DNA of 64,000 nucleotides from Flavobacteriales bacterium (GTDB lineage: Bacteria; Bacteroidota; Bacteroidia; Flavobacteriales_F; PHOS-HE28): NCBI GenBank assembly GCA_038234075.1, contig JBBSUV010000012.1:22616-86615 (forward strand). Direction: 5' to 3'. The translations under genes were made by a program, and so were the position numbers. Within the stretch, counting starts at the first letter, position 1; every line of letters begins with the position of its first letter. The notes under the pieces were generated by a model. It did no database searches. It was not told where the DNA came from and saw only the letters and a list, made by a program, of their open reading frames with translations. Of this stretch, positions 1 to 55,161 are shown one piece after another.

Positions 1-480
1 CTCGGTATCGATTACATGCCGAACGACCATTTCTCCGCATTCATCTCGCCCGCCACGGCGAAGTTCACCTTCGTGAACGACCAAGGCCTGGCCGATAAAG
101 GCGCCTTCGGCGTGGATCCCGCCACCTATTCCTACGGTGTGGATACGGTAAAGCTTACCAATGGCGCCAATAGCTTGTTCGAGTTCGGGGGCTACGTGAA
201 GCTGATGTACCAGCACGACCTGGCGAAGAATATCAACTTCCTCACCCGTGCCGACTTCTTCAGCAATTACCTGAAGAACCCGGAGAACATCGTTGTGAAC
301 TGGGAGACCCTCTTCACCTTCAAGGTGAACGACTGGTTCGCCGCCACCCTGAGCACGATGCTGATCTATGACGATAAGACCCAGATCCTGAAGCCTTGGG
401 AGGACACGCCGCTGTTTTATGTCGGCAAGGGCACGCAGTTCAAGGAGGCCATCTCGCTTGGCATCATGCTGAAGATCTGA
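1..480 (+). CDS. DUF3078-family outer-membrane beta-barrel-like protein, 3' part (5' end outside the window)
   Basis: Frame is open from base 1. Motifs FFSNYLKNPENIVVNWE and QFKEAISLG are typical of Bacteroidota DUF3078. Confidence 0.7.
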   Translation, partial: LGIDYMPNDHFSAFISPATAKFTFVNDQGLADKGAFGVDPATYSYGVDTVKLTNGANSLFEFGGYVKLMYQHDLAKNINFLTRADFFSNYLKNPENIVVNWETLFTFKVNDWFAATLSTMLIYDDKTQILKPWEDTPLFYVGKGTQFKEAISLGIMLKI

Positions 481-498
481 TCATTGGCTCCATTTTGG

Positions 499-537
499 AA
501 AGCCCGCACCGAAGCATTCGGGGCGGGCTTTCTTTTT
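499..537 (+). terminator. Rho-independent terminator
   Basis: AAAGCCCGC-N-GCGGGCTTT stem followed by CTTTTT, just after the stop at 480. Confidence 0.8.
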
Positions 538-556
538 GACAGATGCTTCTCTGGAG

Positions 557-889
557 CCTCATTTGCATGGCCATGCAAATGAGGATGGCCTTGCATGCGC
601 GATTTGTGCTGTGGGAGCGCCGGCATTCAATGGTAGATCAGGAGCTCCGCGGGCTAGACAAGGTCAGGTCAGCCTCAGCCTACACTAAGTTTCGAGGTTA
701 AATGTGAAATTGACGATTGCATGGCCATGCAAATGAGAGTCGCCCTGCACACGGGAGTGGTGTTGTTATAATGCGGACTTTTCAATGGCGAAGCAAGATC
801 TCTACACGTTTGACGAGCTGATGTCAGCCTGAGCTTTCGCGGAGCTTCGAGGTCAATTGTTAAATCGACGTTTGCATGGCCATGCAAAT
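557..889. repeat. Tandem array of three palindromes (TTGCATGG|CCATGCAA) at 154/155-bp spacing, with homologous intervening units
   Basis: Palindrome centres at 570/571, 724/725 and 879/880. Copy 1 is a perfect 28-bp palindrome (557-584). Units 581-734 and 735-889 share TTCAATGG, GTCAGCCT and TTCGAGGT blocks. Confidence 0.9.
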
Positions 890-954
890 GGGTATGGCCC
901 ATTGAAGGTCGTCGGGCCGAAACTGGATCACTTGTCTCCTGAACACCAAGTCTA

Positions 955-1386
955 TCACTTGGTGCGCAGTATCCCGTCAGCAAGTGCAGCTTGTTCGGCA
1001 AGTGATCTAGCCTCCCCTTCGCCCAGTAGAAGTGAATATGCAATACGAAGCTTTTCCCAAGCGCTGGTCGCCTCGGCAGCCTTTCGTGTGCCTTCGATCG
1101 TGAGGAAGACCTCGACAACACGGTCCTGGCCATTACGAACGATCAGGCTTTCCATTGCGAGCTTATCCAGTGTGCGAGAGATCGTGGAGGCATCCAACTG
1201 GTGAACGTATGCAAGGTCCGTGACATTAATGCCAGGAGCTTCTCTGGCCGTCATGAGGATAAATCCCATGGTGGGCGTGATCTCGATGTGACGAAAGTGT
1301 GCTTCCGCCATGCGGGTAAGTGATCTTCCCAAGGCGGCCCCGGCATGATAGAGGCAAGAGTTGTAGCGGCTTTGGAGATCAGACAT
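955..1386 (-). CDS. MarR-family transcriptional regulator
   Basis: 143 aa with a wHTH (LDASTISRTLDKL...GQDRVVEVFLTIEG). Confidence 0.85.
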   Translation of the reverse strand: MSDLQSRYNSCLYHAGAALGRSLTRMAEAHFRHIEITPTMGFILMTAREAPGINVTDLAYVHQLDASTISRTLDKLAMESLIVRNGQDRVVEVFLTIEGTRKAAEATSAWEKLRIAYSLLLGEGEARSLAEQAALADGILRTK

Positions 1387-1402
1387 GGTAGATGCAAGGT
1401 AA

Positions 1403-1424
1403 CATTTGCATGGCCATGCAAATG
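1403..1424. promoter_or_regulatory. Candidate MarR autoregulatory operator overlapping the promoter
   Basis: 22-bp perfect palindrome CATTTGCATGGCCATGCAAATG, 16 bp upstream of the marR ATG. On the minus strand TTTG-N17-TACCTTGC resembles a Bacteroidota -33/-7 promoter. Confidence 0.7.
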
Positions 1425-1470
1425 AGCCATCAGTAACTGAGCCGACGGTCTTCGACTTGAGCTGAAAAGT

Positions 1471-3465
1471 TCAAGGAAACCTCAGCGGCCCCTTCAACGG
1501 CTGGAACAGGCCATAGAGCCAAGGGTTCCCTTCGCGCACGTGGACCTCTATCGAGGCCACGCGTGCGGTCTTCCCGCCGGGGTTCCAGAGATAGATTTTC
1601 AACCGTGCGCCTTGCCCATGCTGAGGGAGGTCCGATAGCGGGGTGGACGTAAAGAGCGCGGAGCGACCAAGGGCAGGCCCATCGCCACTGGTGCGATAGA
1701 ATATGGAGCGGTCGCCTTCCTTCAGTTCCATCACCAGCTTCAGTTCACTTCCGGCTGCGGCGTTAAGCACCTCCATGCGGGCTTCCAGGATGTCGTTATC
1801 GCCCGAGGAAAGATCGAAGACCGAGCGCTCGAAAACAGCGCCGAACTCACGACCTGCAAGATCCCAGACTTTCGGAGCCATGCCGTATTTGCCCGTGGTA
1901 TCCCGTGATGAAGGCAGGTCCGCGTCCACGTTCCATCCTTCACCTTTCAGCGCTTCCGGTGTCACCATGCTGCGGTGTGAGAGGTCCTCTAGGTTTCCGT
2001 TGTTGGGCATGCCGGAGAACAAAAAGGCTTGACCCTCCTCCATATCGTGCCGTTCCACCATGAAGGGGAACGCCTGTTGGATGCGCTCGAGGTTTTCAGC
2101 AGTGGCACCGGAGGAGATCCCATAGAATACCTCGGCAGCGGACGTGGTGCTCAATAGGCTGTCCACGAAATGCGATGACCGTGAGCGCAGGTTGATGTAA
2201 GGTGCGGAGGTACTGTCGATGCCCCATTGCTTGAAGTAGAACCCCGGGATCTCCTCCGGTAGGTCCACCAGCGCCAACCGGTCGGGGACCTTGGAAGCCT
2301 CGACGATACCGTGGACGGCAACCTCGTATTTCGAGCGGTAGAAGATCTCGTAATGTTTCCGCTGCTCTACGAGTCCGAAAACGGCCGTGGCTGCGATCAG
2401 CGCTACCAGCGGGAACAGCAGCGGCGGACGCGGTGAACGCCAACCCGCGAACAAGGGAAAGACCAAGAAGGGGAAGGAGAAGATCACCACGGAATACTGA
2501 AGCACCGGCGCATGCCAGACCGAATAGCCGTATCCAACGGCCAAAGGCACCAGAGCAAGTATGAGGCATAGCAGGATGAAAGGGGAGGCTCCTTCGTCTT
2601 TGGAGCGGAATGCACGCGTCCAACCCAGAAGCGCCACGCCGAGCACCACCACCGCAAGCGGGATGCTGAACTGGAAGATCCAAGCGACATATTCCGGTAG
2701 CCAAATGGTTGTCGGCGGTGCCAGCCATTGGCCAACTCCGCCATAGCCGAATTGCCGCCACGTGATGGGCAGTTCCGGCAGGTAGAGCAACAGTGCCAAG
2801 CCACCGGCCAGCAGCACGCGTTTCCGTTCCACCGGCGGAGCCAGGAACAGCAGGCACAGCCCGGCCAGCAGCGCGAAGAGCAAGGTGAAATGATGCACAT
2901 AGGCACACAAGGCCGCAGCCAATGCGAGACCGGTCCATGCCCATTTCCGGCCGCCCAAGGCGCGTGTGATCTGATCCATCAACAGGGCGCAGGTGAAGAA
3001 ACCCGCCGCATAGGGCCGTGCGATCTGGGCATACATCACCGTGTATTGCACCGTGCCGATGAAGGCGATCGAAAGCAGTGCAGCTGCAGGTGAGGTCCAT
3101 GCTGCTGCAAAGCGGTACAAAAAGAACAGTGCCGCGATGCCCATTGCGATGAAGGGCAGCTTCACCGCTAACTCACTCGTGCCGAACAGACCGGTCCAGA
3201 TCCACTCGAACACCTGCACGCCCGAAGGATGCGCATCGATGGCCACGCCCTTCGCGATCAGCTCACTGAACGAACTGAAGCGCACGCGCAACAACGCGCT
3301 GATCTCGTCATGGGTGAAGGGAATGTGCGGCAGGTTCCACGAACGCAGTACGGTAGCCAACAGCAGCAGCGCCAACAAAGCCCAACGTTGTGCGGGATCA
3401 CCGGGAATGCCGACCGTGGCCGCCTCTTCCAGCCGCTTGCGCCAGTGCGGTTGCTCAGCTGCCAC
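1471..3465 (-). CDS. GT39/ArnT-PMT-like membrane glycosyltransferase
   Basis: THDEISA motif, multiple TM helices, AQIARPYA motif and a soluble C-terminal domain. Confidence 0.7.
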   Translation of the reverse strand: MAAEQPHWRKRLEEAATVGIPGDPAQRWALLALLLLATVLRSWNLPHIPFTHDEISALLRVRFSSFSELIAKGVAIDAHPSGVQVFEWIWTGLFGTSELAVKLPFIAMGIAALFFLYRFAAAWTSPAAALLSIAFIGTVQYTVMYAQIARPYAAGFFTCALLMDQITRALGGRKWAWTGLALAAALCAYVHHFTLLFALLAGLCLLFLAPPVERKRVLLAGGLALLLYLPELPITWRQFGYGGVGQWLAPPTTIWLPEYVAWIFQFSIPLAVVVLGVALLGWTRAFRSKDEGASPFILLCLILALVPLAVGYGYSVWHAPVLQYSVVIFSFPFLVFPLFAGWRSPRPPLLFPLVALIAATAVFGLVEQRKHYEIFYRSKYEVAVHGIVEASKVPDRLALVDLPEEIPGFYFKQWGIDSTSAPYINLRSRSSHFVDSLLSTTSAAEVFYGISSGATAENLERIQQAFPFMVERHDMEEGQAFLFSGMPNNGNLEDLSHRSMVTPEALKGEGWNVDADLPSSRDTTGKYGMAPKVWDLAGREFGAVFERSVFDLSSGDNDILEARMEVLNAAAGSELKLVMELKEGDRSIFYRTSGDGPALGRSALFTSTPLSDLPQHGQGARLKIYLWNPGGKTARVASIEVHVREGNPWLYGLFQPLKGPLRFP

Positions 3466-3904
3466 GTTCCAGGTCGCGTTTGATGTCCTTTTCCTTCAAG
3501 CTATCGCGCTTGTCGTAGGTCTTCTTGCCCTTGGCCAGCGCGATATCCACCTTCACGATGCCGTTCTTGGCGAAGAACGATCGTATGGGAACGATCGTGA
3601 CCCCTTGGTCCTTCAGCTTGCGCTGCAGCTTCTTCAGCTCTGTGCGGTGCAGCAGCAGTTTGCGATCGCGGATAGGCTCGTGGGCAAAGTTCTTCGCCTT
3701 CTCGAACGGCTGTATGCGCATGTTGCGCAGGTATAGCTCGTCGCCGATGAAGGTGCAGAAGGCCTCGGTGATGCTGGCGTCGCCGAGGCGCAGACTCTTC
3801 ACCTCACTGCCCACGAGCATGATGCCGCATTCGTGCGTTTCGAGGAAAAAGTACTCGAACGCCGCACGGCGGTTCTTGATCTCGGGCATCACTGGAGCGG
3901 CCAT
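3455..3904 (-). CDS. smpB: SsrA-binding protein
   Basis: IKNRRAAFEY, GIMLVGSEVKSLR and KGKKTYDKRD motifs. Start taken at the ATG at 3904. Confidence 0.97.
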   Translation of the reverse strand: MAAPVMPEIKNRRAAFEYFFLETHECGIMLVGSEVKSLRLGDASITEAFCTFIGDELYLRNMRIQPFEKAKNFAHEPIRDRKLLLHRTELKKLQRKLKDQGVTIVPIRSFFAKNGIVKVDIALAKGKKTYDKRDSLKEKDIKRDLERGS

Positions 3905-3953
3905 GGCGCGAAGATGGGGACTGGAAGCCGCAAATGGCTGGATTGCCGATGAG

Positions 3954-4814
3954 CTATTGCGTTTCACCGCCTTGCTGAGCATCCACCCAAGCGATCCCCT
4001 GCTCCTCGATGCGCACCTTGCGCTCCTTGTACAGTGCTCCGAGCGCTTTCTTGAAAGCCTTCTTGCTCATGCCGAGCGCCCGGTAGACCTCCTCCGGCGA
4101 GCTCTTGTCCGTCAACGGAAAGAAACCCTCGTGCTGCTTGATCCGCTTGGCCAGGAGGGCGGTGTTGGCATCGTTGAAGTGCTCGTATCCGATAGCCTGG
4201 AGCGCGATGTCCAGCTTGTTGTCGGGGCGCACGGCCTTCACGAAGCCGGTGATGCGGTCACCGACGGAGATCGGCTTGAAGACCTCGTTGGCATGGATGA
4301 GGCCTTGGTGCTTATTGTTCACGATCACAGACCAGCCCATCTCGCTGCGCCCGAAGACCAGGAGTTTGACCTCATCGCCTTCCGCGACGGTAAGTTCCGC
4401 ATTCCCCAAGTGCTTATCGATGCGGGTGCTTCCATAAAGCCGGTCCGTATGCTCGTCCAGCGCTAAATAGGTCACATACCAGCGGCCTTCCTCCAATTTC
4501 CGCTGTTGTTCCTTGAAGGGCACCAAGAGGTCCTTCTCCATGCCCCAGTCCATGAAGGCGCCTAAGCGATCCACGGCATTCACGCGCAGGCTGGCGAAAC
4601 CGTTCAATTCGATCTTCGGCTCCAGCGAGGTGGCTACCTGCCGGTCCTCGGAATCGCGGTACACGAAAACGTTGAGCACGGCTCCTTGGTCGTGCTCGAT
4701 CGGTACGTACTTGTTCGGCAGCAGCACCTCGTTCCCATCATCATCTCCCAGGAAAAGCCCTACGCTGGTGTTGCGCAGGATGACGAGGTCCTGGGTCTGG
4801 CCGGTGTGTATCAT
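3954..4814 (-). CDS. cvfB: CvfB-family S1 RNA-binding protein
   Basis: EVLLPNKYVP, GAFMDWGMEKDLLVP and C-terminal wHTH MSKKAFKKALGALYK. Confidence 0.9.
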   Translation of the reverse strand: MIHTGQTQDLVILRNTSVGLFLGDDDGNEVLLPNKYVPIEHDQGAVLNVFVYRDSEDRQVATSLEPKIELNGFASLRVNAVDRLGAFMDWGMEKDLLVPFKEQQRKLEEGRWYVTYLALDEHTDRLYGSTRIDKHLGNAELTVAEGDEVKLLVFGRSEMGWSVIVNNKHQGLIHANEVFKPISVGDRITGFVKAVRPDNKLDIALQAIGYEHFNDANTALLAKRIKQHEGFFPLTDKSSPEEVYRALGMSKKAFKKALGALYKERKVRIEEQGIAWVDAQQGGETQ

Positions 4815-4845
4815 CTGGCGAAAGTTAGGTTGTCCCCTCCCGCAC

Positions 4846-5145
4846 CTACTTCACGAAGTGGAATACCAACAGCAGGATGATCACCGCGATGCCGAGCAAC
4901 GATGCGATGAAGAAGTAGTCGGCCACTTTCTCCATCCGTATTTCCCGCTCCGGGTGTACCGTCCGGATGGAAGCATAGGAGAAGAGCGTGGAGACGGTCA
5001 ACAGCAATGCGATCACCGAAGTGAATTCATCGAGAATGGTGGATACGGAAGCGTTCGAAACGTGCAAGGAGGTGATCACGAAGAGGCAAAAACCCAGCAG
5101 GTTCGCGGAAGTACTGAGGATGTGCTTTGAGGTGCTCTTCGCCAT
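4846..5145 (-). CDS. Small conserved membrane protein (3 TM)
   Basis: 99 aa starting MAKSTSKHILSTSANLLGFC, with hydrophobic segments. Confidence 0.7.
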   Translation of the reverse strand: MAKSTSKHILSTSANLLGFCLFVITSLHVSNASVSTILDEFTSVIALLLTVSTLFSYASIRTVHPEREIRMEKVADYFFIASLLGIAVIILLLVFHFVK

Positions 5146-39176: not shown

Positions 39177-39260
39177 ACCGGAGTGGCGGAATTGGTAGAC
39201 GCGCACGTTTCAGGGGCGTGTGACCGTAAGGTCGTAAGGGTTCGAGTCCCTTCTTCGGTA
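39177..39260 (+). tRNA. trnL: tRNA-Leu(CAG)
   Basis: Acceptor ACCGGAG/CTTCGGT, D-loop TGGTA, anticodon arm CACGT-TTCAGGG-GCGTG, long variable arm and GGTTCGAGTCC. CCA is not encoded. TATATTTG box at 39141-39148. Confidence 0.95.
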
Positions 39261-39391
39261 CTGACAGAGCGGCGCGAGCCGCTTTGTTCGTTCTCAGGGT
39301 TTGCCGAAGCCTCATGTCGATCTTGGTCGCAGCCTCGTTTCCTTCAGCAACCGTTCGCGCCATCGTTCGCGGCTACCTTTGATCGGACCAG

Positions 39392-39970
39392 ATGTCCGTG
39401 AAAAGATTCAATAGCCGACGTTCCTACCGGTGGGTATTCCTGTGGGGTGGCCTCTGTATAGGCTTGACCATAATGGGGCTCTTGGCAATGGACATTACGG
39501 GCTCCAATATCCTGATCATCATCGCTGTCGTTGTGGTGGTCCTGAGGTTGGTATGGAGCGCGGTCCAAAGCAAGAAGAACATCATTGAGTATGTACTTGG
39601 CACGGATGCCTTGCTACTGCGCCGCGGTGCGGAAGAGGAGCGGTTGCCCTTGATCAATGTGATCGATGCGAACCTCATTGACTTGACCACCGCCCGGGAT
39701 TATGTGCAGGAGCACCGCAACTCCGATAACGACTCGGAAGATGGACAAGCCGGAGGTCCGAACCGCAGTGCAACCCGCTTTTGCAGCGTGCCTATCGTGC
39801 TTGGTCGCTTGGATCCGCTTTTGGCCGGGCTTACCGGGCTGAGCACGCACGGCTTCCGCCAGAGCTTGGTCCTGTTGCGGATCCGGGATGGAGGTGTGCT
39901 GTTGCTCTCGCCGAAATACAGTGAGCGCATGGTCAATGCCATCGGCAAGGCCAAAGGCATCACCCACTAA
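39392..39970 (+). CDS. Hypothetical 2-TM protein with PH-like domain
   Basis: GTG start, two N-terminal TM helices and ATRFCSVP...LLLSPK. Confidence 0.65.
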   Translation: MSVKRFNSRRSYRWVFLWGGLCIGLTIMGLLAMDITGSNILIIIAVVVVVLRLVWSAVQSKKNIIEYVLGTDALLLRRGAEEERLPLINVIDANLIDLTTARDYVQEHRNSDNDSEDGQAGGPNRSATRFCSVPIVLGRLDPLLAGLTGLSTHGFRQSLVLLRIRDGGVLLLSPKYSERMVNAIGKAKGITH

Positions 39971-53636: not shown

Positions 53637-53757
53637 TGCAGGATCGGCGGAAGGCGTTATCTGCGTCCATCTGTGTCATCTGCGGTTTTTCCCTTCTCAG
53701 CGGAAGAAAGCCATCCATGCCGCAAAGCACATCCGCGGATCCTGCTACCTTCGCCGC

Positions 53758-53927
53758 GCTGATGATCCCCGTCTTAACAAGCGGGGTTAAAAGGGAATCA
53801 GGTGCGATACCTGAGCTTTTCCTGAAGCTGTAAGCCTGAATGCCGAACCGGCAATAAGCCACTGTCAACCGCAAGGAAGATGGGAAGGCGCCGGAGAGGA
53901 AGGCGAGCCAGAAGACCTGTCACTAGC
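53758..53927 (+). ncRNA. Cobalamin (AdoCbl) riboswitch
   Basis: AAAAGGGAA-TCAGGTG..A..CCTGA, CTGTAA, GCCACTG, GGGAAG and B12 box GAGCCAGAAGACCTG. TACCTTCG promoter at 53746. A terminator-like hairpin lies at about 53942-54018. Confidence 0.92.
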
Positions 53928-54045
53928 ACAATGGATGATCGCTTCCAGGAAAGAGGCGTGCTCCTGTGCCCTCGGTCCGCGTCGGCATGTAAGCACGGTT
54001 ATTCCTGGAGGTTCTTTAGAACGAAACCTCAACAAGGAATAATCA

Positions 54046-55161
54046 ATGAAAACAACCGGACATCTTCTTACACTTCTCGCATTCTCCGCAAGCACTGCGG
54101 CACACGCGCAATTCGACATGGCCCAAGTGCAATACTGGGTGGGCGCAGGCGCGGACAGCTCCGTGCTCATAGTGGATTTCCAGGACGGCACCGATGATGC
54201 CAGCTATGCCTGGGGCTGGCTGCACAACGGCGGAACAGGGGAGGACATGCTCAACGCCATCGCAGCTGCCGACGTGAACTTCACCATCGACCTCACGGGA
54301 GGATTCCTGAACTCGGTCACCTACGGAAGCCATGCCGGCATCGGTGGTTCACCGGATTACTGGTCCACCTGGAGCGGAACGAGCTTAGCCACGCTGGGCA
54401 TGAACATGGGCGCTTCGGAAGAAGTCGGAAACGGCGATTGGTTCGCTTGTTCCTACACGGATTTCAGCCCGGCACTGGAGCCGACGGAACCCATTGCAGC
54501 AATGGACCCGTTCGGGTTCACCGCAGCGGATGTGACCTTCTGGGTAGGCACGGGATCCGACACAACAATGCTCGTGGTCGACTTCCAGGATGGTAGCGGC
54601 GCTTCCTCTTTCGCGTGGGGTTATCTGCATGATGCAGGCGTGACCGGTGAGACGATGTTGAATGATATCGCCGCTGCTGATCTCGCATTCACGGCGGTCA
54701 CTACAGGTGGTTTCTTGGGTGATGTCACCTACGGCGATCATGCCGGCATTGGCGGAAGCCCGGATTATTGGTCCACCTGGAGCGGCACCAACCTGGGCGA
54801 TTGGTCCATGAACCTGGGCATTGGTACCACACTCGGTAGTGGTGATCTTTTCGGTTGCTCGTACACGGATTTCGCACCGGCTATACGTCCCGGTTTTCCT
54901 GCGGCCGCTTCCTTCTCCACGGGTATCACGACCACGGTCGCAGCCTCATTCAACGTGTGGCCACAACCGGCCATCGACTTCTTGAACGTGAGCACCGACC
55001 GCGCAGAGCAACAGGAAGTGGCCGTGTATGATATGGCTGGAACCCTTGTGTATCAAGGGTCCGCGAATGGAACGGTGAGCACGGTCGATGTGCGTTCGCT
55101 GTCCGCTGGCATGTATGTACTGCAGCTCGGAACGGCCAAGCGTTTGATCGCAGTGCAATAA
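54046..55161 (+). CDS. T9SS-secreted protein with two tandem ~125-aa domains (putative B12-binding)
   Basis: Signal peptide, duplicated WVG.G.D...VDFQDG...WG..H...TGE.ML..IAAAD...GGSPDYWSTWSGT unit and a T9SS CTD. First gene after the riboswitch. Confidence 0.75.
   Translation: MKTTGHLLTLLAFSASTAAHAQFDMAQVQYWVGAGADSSVLIVDFQDGTDDASYAWGWLHNGGTGEDMLNAIAAADVNFTIDLTGGFLNSVTYGSHAGIGGSPDYWSTWSGTSLATLGMNMGASEEVGNGDWFACSYTDFSPALEPTEPIAAMDPFGFTAADVTFWVGTGSDTTMLVVDFQDGSGASSFAWGYLHDAGVTGETMLNDIAAADLAFTAVTTGGFLGDVTYGDHAGIGGSPDYWSTWSGTNLGDWSMNLGIGTTLGSGDLFGCSYTDFAPAIRPGFPAAASFSTGITTTVAASFNVWPQPAIDFLNVSTDRAEQQEVAVYDMAGTLVYQGSANGTVSTVDVRSLSAGMYVLQLGTAKRLIAVQ

Follow-up and report, generated by a model that had tools for sequence, protein, structure and literature searches.

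Repression of their own genes through a palindromic operator is textbook behaviour for regulators of the MarR family, and the known systems of this family have one to three sites within promoter regions. For regulator sites placed elsewhere, the closest described cases are analogies: LacI autoregulation involves a roadblock at O3, a site behind the repressor gene lacI itself (PMC3711431), the MarR-family tetramer ScoC loops DNA (PMC12297555), and decoy sites titrating a bacterial transcription factor have been documented for response regulators (PMC8599769) and assembled into synthetic arrays (PMC7826281). Here, a stretch of 64,000 nucleotides from a Flavobacteriales bacterium (GenBank assembly GCA_038234075.1, contig JBBSUV010000012.1, positions 22,616 to 86,615 of the forward strand), referred to below as the window or W, was analysed around a marR-family gene encoding a regulator of 143 residues (955-1386, minus strand; Pfam PF01047, E = 1e-8). 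The region behind this gene had earlier been described, from the DNA letters, as two homologous units of ~155 bp between palindromes and had been read as possible small RNA (sRNA) cassettes controlled by MarR. The analysis reported here indicates instead that region 557-890 is probably an array of MarR operators which arose by tandem duplication and acts at the level of DNA. Positions are those of the 64-kb window throughout, unless a related locus is named, and L-numbers denote the fetched DNA of related loci.

The palindrome in question is the 16-mer TTGCATGGCCATGCAA, of which the 64-kb window contains just four exact copies, at 563, 717, 872 and 1406, all falling within 900 bp around marR. 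Five matches to the palindrome were reached in 0/100 shuffles, and relaxation of the pattern to TGCATGNNCATGCA with two mismatches allowed yielded extra matches in the window at chance level only. Downstream of marR, the start-to-start spacing of the copies is 154 and 155 bp. The putative distal operator (557-584, core 563-578) is a perfect 28-bp palindrome, CCTCATTTGCATGGCCATGCAAATGAGG, the 14-nt arms of which are 100% complementary; it is accompanied, at an offset of 18 bp, by a degenerate second operator-like copy, GAGGATGGCCTTGCAT (581-596), which has three mismatches and forms a conserved block with orthologues in L016 and L017, and the counterpart of which in the second unit (735-750) is more decayed. 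The putative middle operator is an exact 16-mer at 717-732 within a 24-nt block (714-737), and the putative marR-proximal downstream operator, TTTGCATGGCCATGCAAATG (871-890), is centred 75 nt past the marR stop codon. On the other side of the gene, a putative autoregulatory operator, CATTTGCATGGCCATGCAAATG (1403-1424), has its centre 27 nt before the marR ATG and ends 4 nt upstream of a -7 box. Beyond the 16-mer, the half-sites show a preference for CCATGCAA-N-Y-G, so that the whole site measures 22 bp and has the consensus CRN-TTGCATGG|CCATGCAA-NYG. The site thereby has the features of a MarR-family operator, namely a palindrome of about 16-30 bp with a copy over the presumed promoter of the regulator's own gene.

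Close homologues of the MarR protein number 32 and come without exception from metagenome-assembled genomes of Flavobacteriales, one of which is labelled Cryomorpha ignava; the DNA around 13 of these homologues was compared. The palindrome flanks marR in 13 independent lineages or assemblies. Among orthologues at least 58% identical to MarR, the same palindrome is found downstream of marR in all except L020, as one to six copies of which the first lies 33-83 nt past the stop codon, and in most orthologues it is also found upstream, with its centre 27 nt (24-49) from the marR ATG, a position (27 nt) that is unchanged in eight lineages. Three gene neighbourhoods are represented: a glycosyltransferase gene, marR and a convergent DUF3078 gene in the window, L016, L017, L004, L008, L001 and L025; glyoxalase, marR and transketolase genes in L012-L014; and marR followed by a DUF4421 gene in L015, L021 and L022. 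No sequence similarity to each other was detected between the DUF3078 and DUF4421 outer-membrane genes. Across the MarR clade the sequence of the recognition helix, VHQLDxSTISRxxDK, does not vary, and the most distant orthologues, L021 and L028, carry a variant palindrome, TGCATGT|ACATGCA, with a central GT|AC, on both sides of marR. Since the palindrome travels with marR through three neighbourhoods and varies in distant orthologues, it belongs to marR, and it is almost certainly the operator of this MarR, as predicted from these sequence comparisons. The link between the palindromes and the adjacent MarR that had been assumed in the original prediction is thus supported, the palindromes being carried along with the gene in three contexts and one copy lying in its promoter.

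Outside this locus the palindrome is rare. No copy was found in about 120 kb of related loci outside marR, 2.9 million viral contigs gave one chance-level match, and a literature search for the palindrome sequence returned just unrelated mouse papers. The sole return of a metagenome scan for palindrome pairs was L003 (JGI Ga0058701_10023253), which was rejected as a relative of the array, being an unrelated AT-rich contig with a different repeat: within L003 2590-2750, TGCATGGCCATGCAAAAGTGCA occurs twice at a distance of 144 bp, and no open reading frame (ORF) of 70 or more residues is present over 2.5 kb.

The degree to which the palindromes are held constant was assessed against the four-fold degenerate sites of marR. 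At these sites the window shares 30-38% identity with L008, L001, L012, L025 and L015, corresponding to saturation, and 51% with L004. Over the same saturated distances the downstream 16-mers show one changed base at most. The unit interiors, by contrast with the palindromes, align between lineages at the level of random sequences (0.42-0.61 versus a null of 0.51 +/- 0.07) and vary in length from 83 to 145 nt, and the palindrome spacings (99, 100, 113, 121, 126, 130, 140 and 148-161 bp) share no common helical phase. This pattern points to selection on the palindromes and not on the bulk of the spacer. It also goes against the expectation of the sRNA proposal that unit sequences be conserved in related genomes, as the interiors are unrecognisable across lineages that keep the palindrome perfect.

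Within the window, the two units are real head-to-tail tandem duplicates of a module of ~155 bp. After removal of the 24-nt palindrome blocks, global alignment of 584-713 with 738-868 required one 1-nt indel and gave 85/130 identical positions (65%), with a score 9.7 standard deviations above that of 1000 dinucleotide shuffles, and the ungapped alignment of 626-745 with 781-900 gave 73% identity. The near-colinear homology of the units stated in the original prediction was therefore confirmed by pairwise alignment (65% identity, z = 9.7), and the shared blocks it had listed (GAG..T.GCC.TGCA, TTCAATGG, GTCAGCCT.AGC and TTCGAGGT.AA.TGT.AAAT.GACG, followed by the palindrome) are all present. The interior, or spacer, of unit 1 (585-713) is 65% identical to 738-868 and folds no better than shuffled sequence, and that of unit 2 (738-868) shares 72% identity with the one unit present in L004 and 94% with its counterpart in L016. 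No further copy of the unit was found elsewhere in the 64-kb window, and Tandem Repeats Finder reported no array because the copies are too diverged. The similarity is non-coding, as had been suggested earlier: the short ORFs differ between the units and among relatives, and unit mismatches are distributed over codon positions as 15/21/9, a periodicity that is not significant. Small ORFs considered as candidates, namely MAMQTSI* starting from an ATG within the palindrome and a His-rich minus-strand frame of 76 residues, were rejected, their frames and stops not being kept between the units or in L004, L016 and L008. No similarity of the window units to the marR promoter or 5' end was detectable besides the palindrome.

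The number of copies differs among close relatives. Three downstream copies are found in the window and in L016 (98% MarR identity), and two in L017 (95%) and in L004 (92%); the sole unit of L017 is hybrid-like, its start resembling unit a and its end unit b. L012, L013 and L014 encode identical MarR proteins yet carry 3, at least 6 and at least 4 copies, respectively, of a 99-100-bp unit, these units being 83-100% identical to one another. The same three loci contain, at 2735-2892 and thus upstream of the real gene, a decayed duplicate of the operator and about the first 90 nt of marR, resulting in three palindromes upstream. As expected of a variable repeat, at which assemblers evidently break, a run of N lies within the array of L013 (3583-3680) and contigs L014, L018 and L019 end in or just past the array, so that published copy numbers are lower bounds. 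Judged from these sequences, the array expands and contracts by tandem duplication and unequal recombination. The alternative of a decayed duplication, which the original prediction had offered alongside the sRNA cassettes, is accordingly right as regards origin by duplication and fails if it is taken to mean a functionless remnant, since the palindromes stay perfect across saturated lineages.

The promoter context of the upstream copy was examined next to that of other genes in the window. A -7-type box, TACCTTG (1395-1401, minus strand), lies 8 nt before the marR ATG, an arrangement of leaderless type, and is taken as the likely promoter element; the box is kept as TA[CT][CA]TTG in the window, L016, L017, L004, L008, L001, L012 and L027. 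Boxes of the form TAnnTT(T)G are present 4-10 nt before the starts of the window genes at 39392, 44330, 48169, 48744, 60970 and 1386, the last being marR, which suggests an organism with mostly leaderless or near-leaderless mRNAs and promoters of the Bacteroidetes type. From this we infer that the upstream operator sits between a presumed -33 region and the -7 box, the classical geometry of an autorepressor. In one lineage, P0014 (L025 1-163, L026 376-452 and L027 880-955), the upstream operator has been cleanly deleted, leaving gctcat|tcccgcc|TACCTTG, with the left flank GCTCAT and the TACCTTG box still in place; behind marR, this lineage retains two palindromes. As L025-L027 keep downstream sites without a promoter operator, the downstream sites are unlikely to be mere looping or titration helpers of autorepression.

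Some features of the array exceed a simple row of operators. The middle and marR-proximal operators are each followed, in the direction of marR transcription, by a conserved one-sided flank on the minus strand, CGTCAATTTCACATTTAACCTCGAA (691-715) and its paralogue CGTCGATTTAACAATTGACCTCGAA (846-870). This block follows non-terminal downstream palindromes solely on the side away from marR, and an ATTT(A/C)ACA motif is found past the downstream palindromes in L004, L016, L017, L008 and L025. The flank matches the -7 box consensus at just 4/6 positions and could be a weak promoter, the site of a second protein or an extended MarR contact; it is the best remaining argument for transcripts starting within the units. 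In addition, some distal copies are perfect palindromes of 28-32 bp with differing outer arms: CCTCAT...ATGAGG in the window (557-584), GTTCTCAT...ATGAGAAC in L004 (3579-3610), TCATAG...CTATGA and GGACAG...CTGTCC in L008 (3666-3693 and 3814-3841, respectively) and GGACAC...GTGTCC in L001 (4634-4661). Five such cases were observed, versus about 0.3 estimated by chance for 45 distinct sites, and the differences between the outer arms of the window and L004 include a compensatory C:G to T:A change. The long arms could have arisen from quasi-palindrome template switching or from selection for hairpin or cruciform formation.

A fuller statement of the operator array, which includes a mechanism and leans on analogy with the systems described above, is favoured with rather more reserve than the array itself and is, on balance, the account we prefer. 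Each palindrome would be bound by one MarR dimer; binding to the upstream copy would bring about classical autorepression of marR, and the downstream copies would load the repressor onto the intergenic region behind the gene, which would then hinder transcription passing through it, as a gate or roadblock composed of several sites and releasable by ligand. The transcription blocked would be read-through from marR, or that from weak promoters adjacent to the palindromes, heading towards the next gene. In relatives this next gene is the co-directional DUF4421 gene: in L015, L021 and L022 it is immediately preceded by the last palindrome, which, judging by this position, could gate it. In L028 and in the lineage of the window, marR is followed, beyond the sites, by the 3' end of a convergent outer-membrane-type gene (the DUF3078 gene in the window), and release of MarR would here permit antisense or colliding transcription. 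Added copies would multiply the strength of the block, and it is proposed that copy number therefore evolves, phasing is irrelevant and spacers drift. Several points weigh against this account. The gate or roadblock function is inferred purely from sequence, a strong terminator hairpin between the array and the DUF3078 gene may limit antisense read-through, and the MarR is distant from its solved relatives, of which the closest is YusO (E = 4.5e-4). A bare roadblock would not need the asymmetric 24-nt flank, which may be a promoter or the site of a second protein, and the 28-32-bp symmetry of the distal copies exceeds the 22-bp operator preference and is not predicted by protein recognition alone.

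The sRNA cassettes of the original prediction, in which each unit would consist of a MarR-controlled promoter and an RNA of ~100-130 nt (initially ~100 nt), transcribed on the sequence evidence from the minus strand in the direction of marR, are judged quite unlikely, although the flank speaks for them in several respects. The one-sided block after each non-terminal palindrome begins at the offset of the marR -7 box, is identical at 23/24 positions between the window (846-870) and L004 while four-fold sites have fallen to the 51% given above, and has relatives of the form ATT(T)CAC both past palindromes in L008, L025 and L028 and in the marR promoters of L015, L020 and L022; in L022, moreover, a copy of the marR leader can be recognised in the flank of the first downstream palindrome. 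The motif is, however, missing from the L001 and L012 units, and a scan of the array for TAnnTT(T)G gave no exact box and relaxed matches near background density. No site was found in a scan of 400-1600 for sigma-70 promoters and terminators, the sole candidate hairpins in the units being the palindromes themselves, which lack a U-tract. Rfam searches, at E <= 10 on window positions 1-5000 and at gathering thresholds on the whole window, gave no match at the locus. The unit interiors fold worse than shuffled sequences on both strands (z = +1.4, +1.4, +1.7 and +0.5), folds of the L012, L008 and L004 units gave no significant stability signal, and the negative z-score of the entire 421-nt region is due solely to pairing between palindromes. 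RNAalifold, applied to 11 homologous units on both strands, likewise recovered only the palindrome-palindrome helix and no covariation within units. The putative RNA body is the least conserved part of the locus, at a variable 83-145 nt, and the claim that each unit encodes an sRNA found no backing in an Rfam match, a terminator, a conserved fold or interior conservation across lineages.

The downstream sites might alternatively serve as a sink that titrates MarR and sets an induction threshold, or as loop anchors to the promoter operator ~534 bp away that strengthen autorepression, both of which are regarded as unlikely. In keeping with such roles, the sites are perfect and information-rich and have no recognisable promoter, copy number is the variable that evolves, and both DNA looping by a MarR-family tetramer and titration by decoys have precedents (PMC12297555; PMC8599769). 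The upstream operator and the first downstream one are separated by a nearly constant 532-555 bp, but the range of upstream-downstream distances (516-555 bp) mainly reflects constant gene length, and the spacings give non-integral numbers of turns without helical phasing, which argues against a loop. The persistence of downstream sites in L025-L027 makes a role as helper of autorepression alone unlikely; the conserved asymmetric flank would be unexplained, and with YusO as the closest solved relative bridging by this MarR is hypothetical. It is highly improbable that the array is a neutral, decaying tandem duplication or a generic repeat, such as a repetitive extragenic palindrome (REP) or bacterial interspersed mosaic element (BIME), a miniature inverted-repeat transposable element (MITE) or an invertible promoter. 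The units are indeed diverged duplicates, palindrome arrays between convergent genes are BIME-like, and, in their size of ~155 bp between inverted repeats, the units are reminiscent of Bacteroidetes invertons and Correia-type MITEs. Neutrality is nevertheless at odds with palindromes that are perfect at saturated synonymous divergence, and a generic repeat with the locus specificity described above (no other copies in 64 kb or in about 120 kb of related loci, and one chance-level viral match). As to an inverton, the homologous units all point the same way in more than 10 assemblies, and the called neighbour genes include no recombinase. The REP, MITE and inverton readings were rejected on the grounds of this locus specificity and constant orientation.

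With respect to the surroundings of the operator array, marR is separated by a gap of 475 bp from the convergent DUF481/DUF3078 outer-membrane-type gene, of which the 3' part lies in the window (16-480, plus strand; Pfam DUF481 match) and the 5' end is cut by the window edge; orthologues in L004, L008 and L025 encode 324-344 residues and match DUF3078/DUF481. The intrinsic terminator of this gene (498-540, plus strand) consists of a 16-bp stem (498-513/517-532, 94% complementary) followed by a T-run, and a comparable hairpin and T-run is found on the outer-membrane gene side in L004, L008, L001 and L025. The hairpin that had been noted at 499-537 as abutting the array is therefore real, at 498-532, and is the terminator of the convergent gene. 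Upstream of marR, a gap of 85 bp is followed by a PMT_2-type glycosyltransferase gene (1471-3465) and smpB, both on the same strand as marR. A 13-bp inverted repeat, CTGAACACCAAGT / ACTTGGTGCGCAG (939-969), spans the marR stop codon and is not kept in L004. Elsewhere in the window, a cobalamin riboswitch (RF00174, 106 bits) is present at 53746-53938 on the plus strand, upstream of the gene at 54046-55161, and a tRNA-Leu (CAG) at 39177-39261 on the plus strand is the sole tRNA of the 64 kb.

In a broader and tentative proposal, the locus would be a natural, evolvable operator array in which the number of sites tunes either a ligand-gated block (of antisense transcription or read-through into the outer-membrane gene) or a repressor sponge, conserved in a family-level clade of Flavobacteriales. 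No precedent for a conserved, copy-number-variable operator array behind a MarR gene, nor a natural tandem decoy array dedicated to an adjacent MarR gene, was found in non-exhaustive literature searches. If correct, this would be a case of natural regulation tuned by the number and not the sequence of repressor sites, a principle that has so far been studied mainly in synthetic arrays of decoys and roadblocks. An uncharacterised MarR clade of uncultured Flavobacteriales would moreover gain a defined operator, a model of its promoter and, in the outer-membrane DUF3078/DUF4421 gene, a likely target. For genome scanning, the locus shows that tandem non-coding similarity may reflect duplicated operator modules and not necessarily RNA genes.

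Compared with known systems, the locus shares with PrrF1/PrrF2, OmrA/OmrB and LhrC1-5 the head-to-tail arrangement of units of ~100-150 nt, each preceded by a regulator palindrome, and differs from them in that no terminator, conserved fold, covariation, conserved RNA body or Rfam family was found here. Like REP and BIME elements, it has tandem palindromes between convergent genes; REPs, however, are scattered in hundreds of copies and change rapidly, whereas the palindromes described here are confined to the marR locus and identical across saturated lineages. With datA, which binds DnaA, and with decoy clusters it has in common a cluster of sites without an evident promoter, the copy number of which could set the amount of free regulator. 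The extra operators of lac (O2/O3), gal (OE/OI), deo and ScoC, and LacI at O3, resemble the array in lying hundreds of bp from the promoter, in places just behind the repressor gene, and a repressor acting as a roadblock is an established mechanism; but here there is no phasing, up to six copies are present and the downstream sites outlive the promoter site. MarR/marO, OhrR-ohrA, HucR and MepR have the same combination of a winged-helix MarR gene and a co-inherited palindrome in its own promoter; in contrast to these systems, the locus has 1-6 extra perfect copies behind the gene, at intervals of 99-161 bp, variable in number between strains and facing a convergent 3' end.

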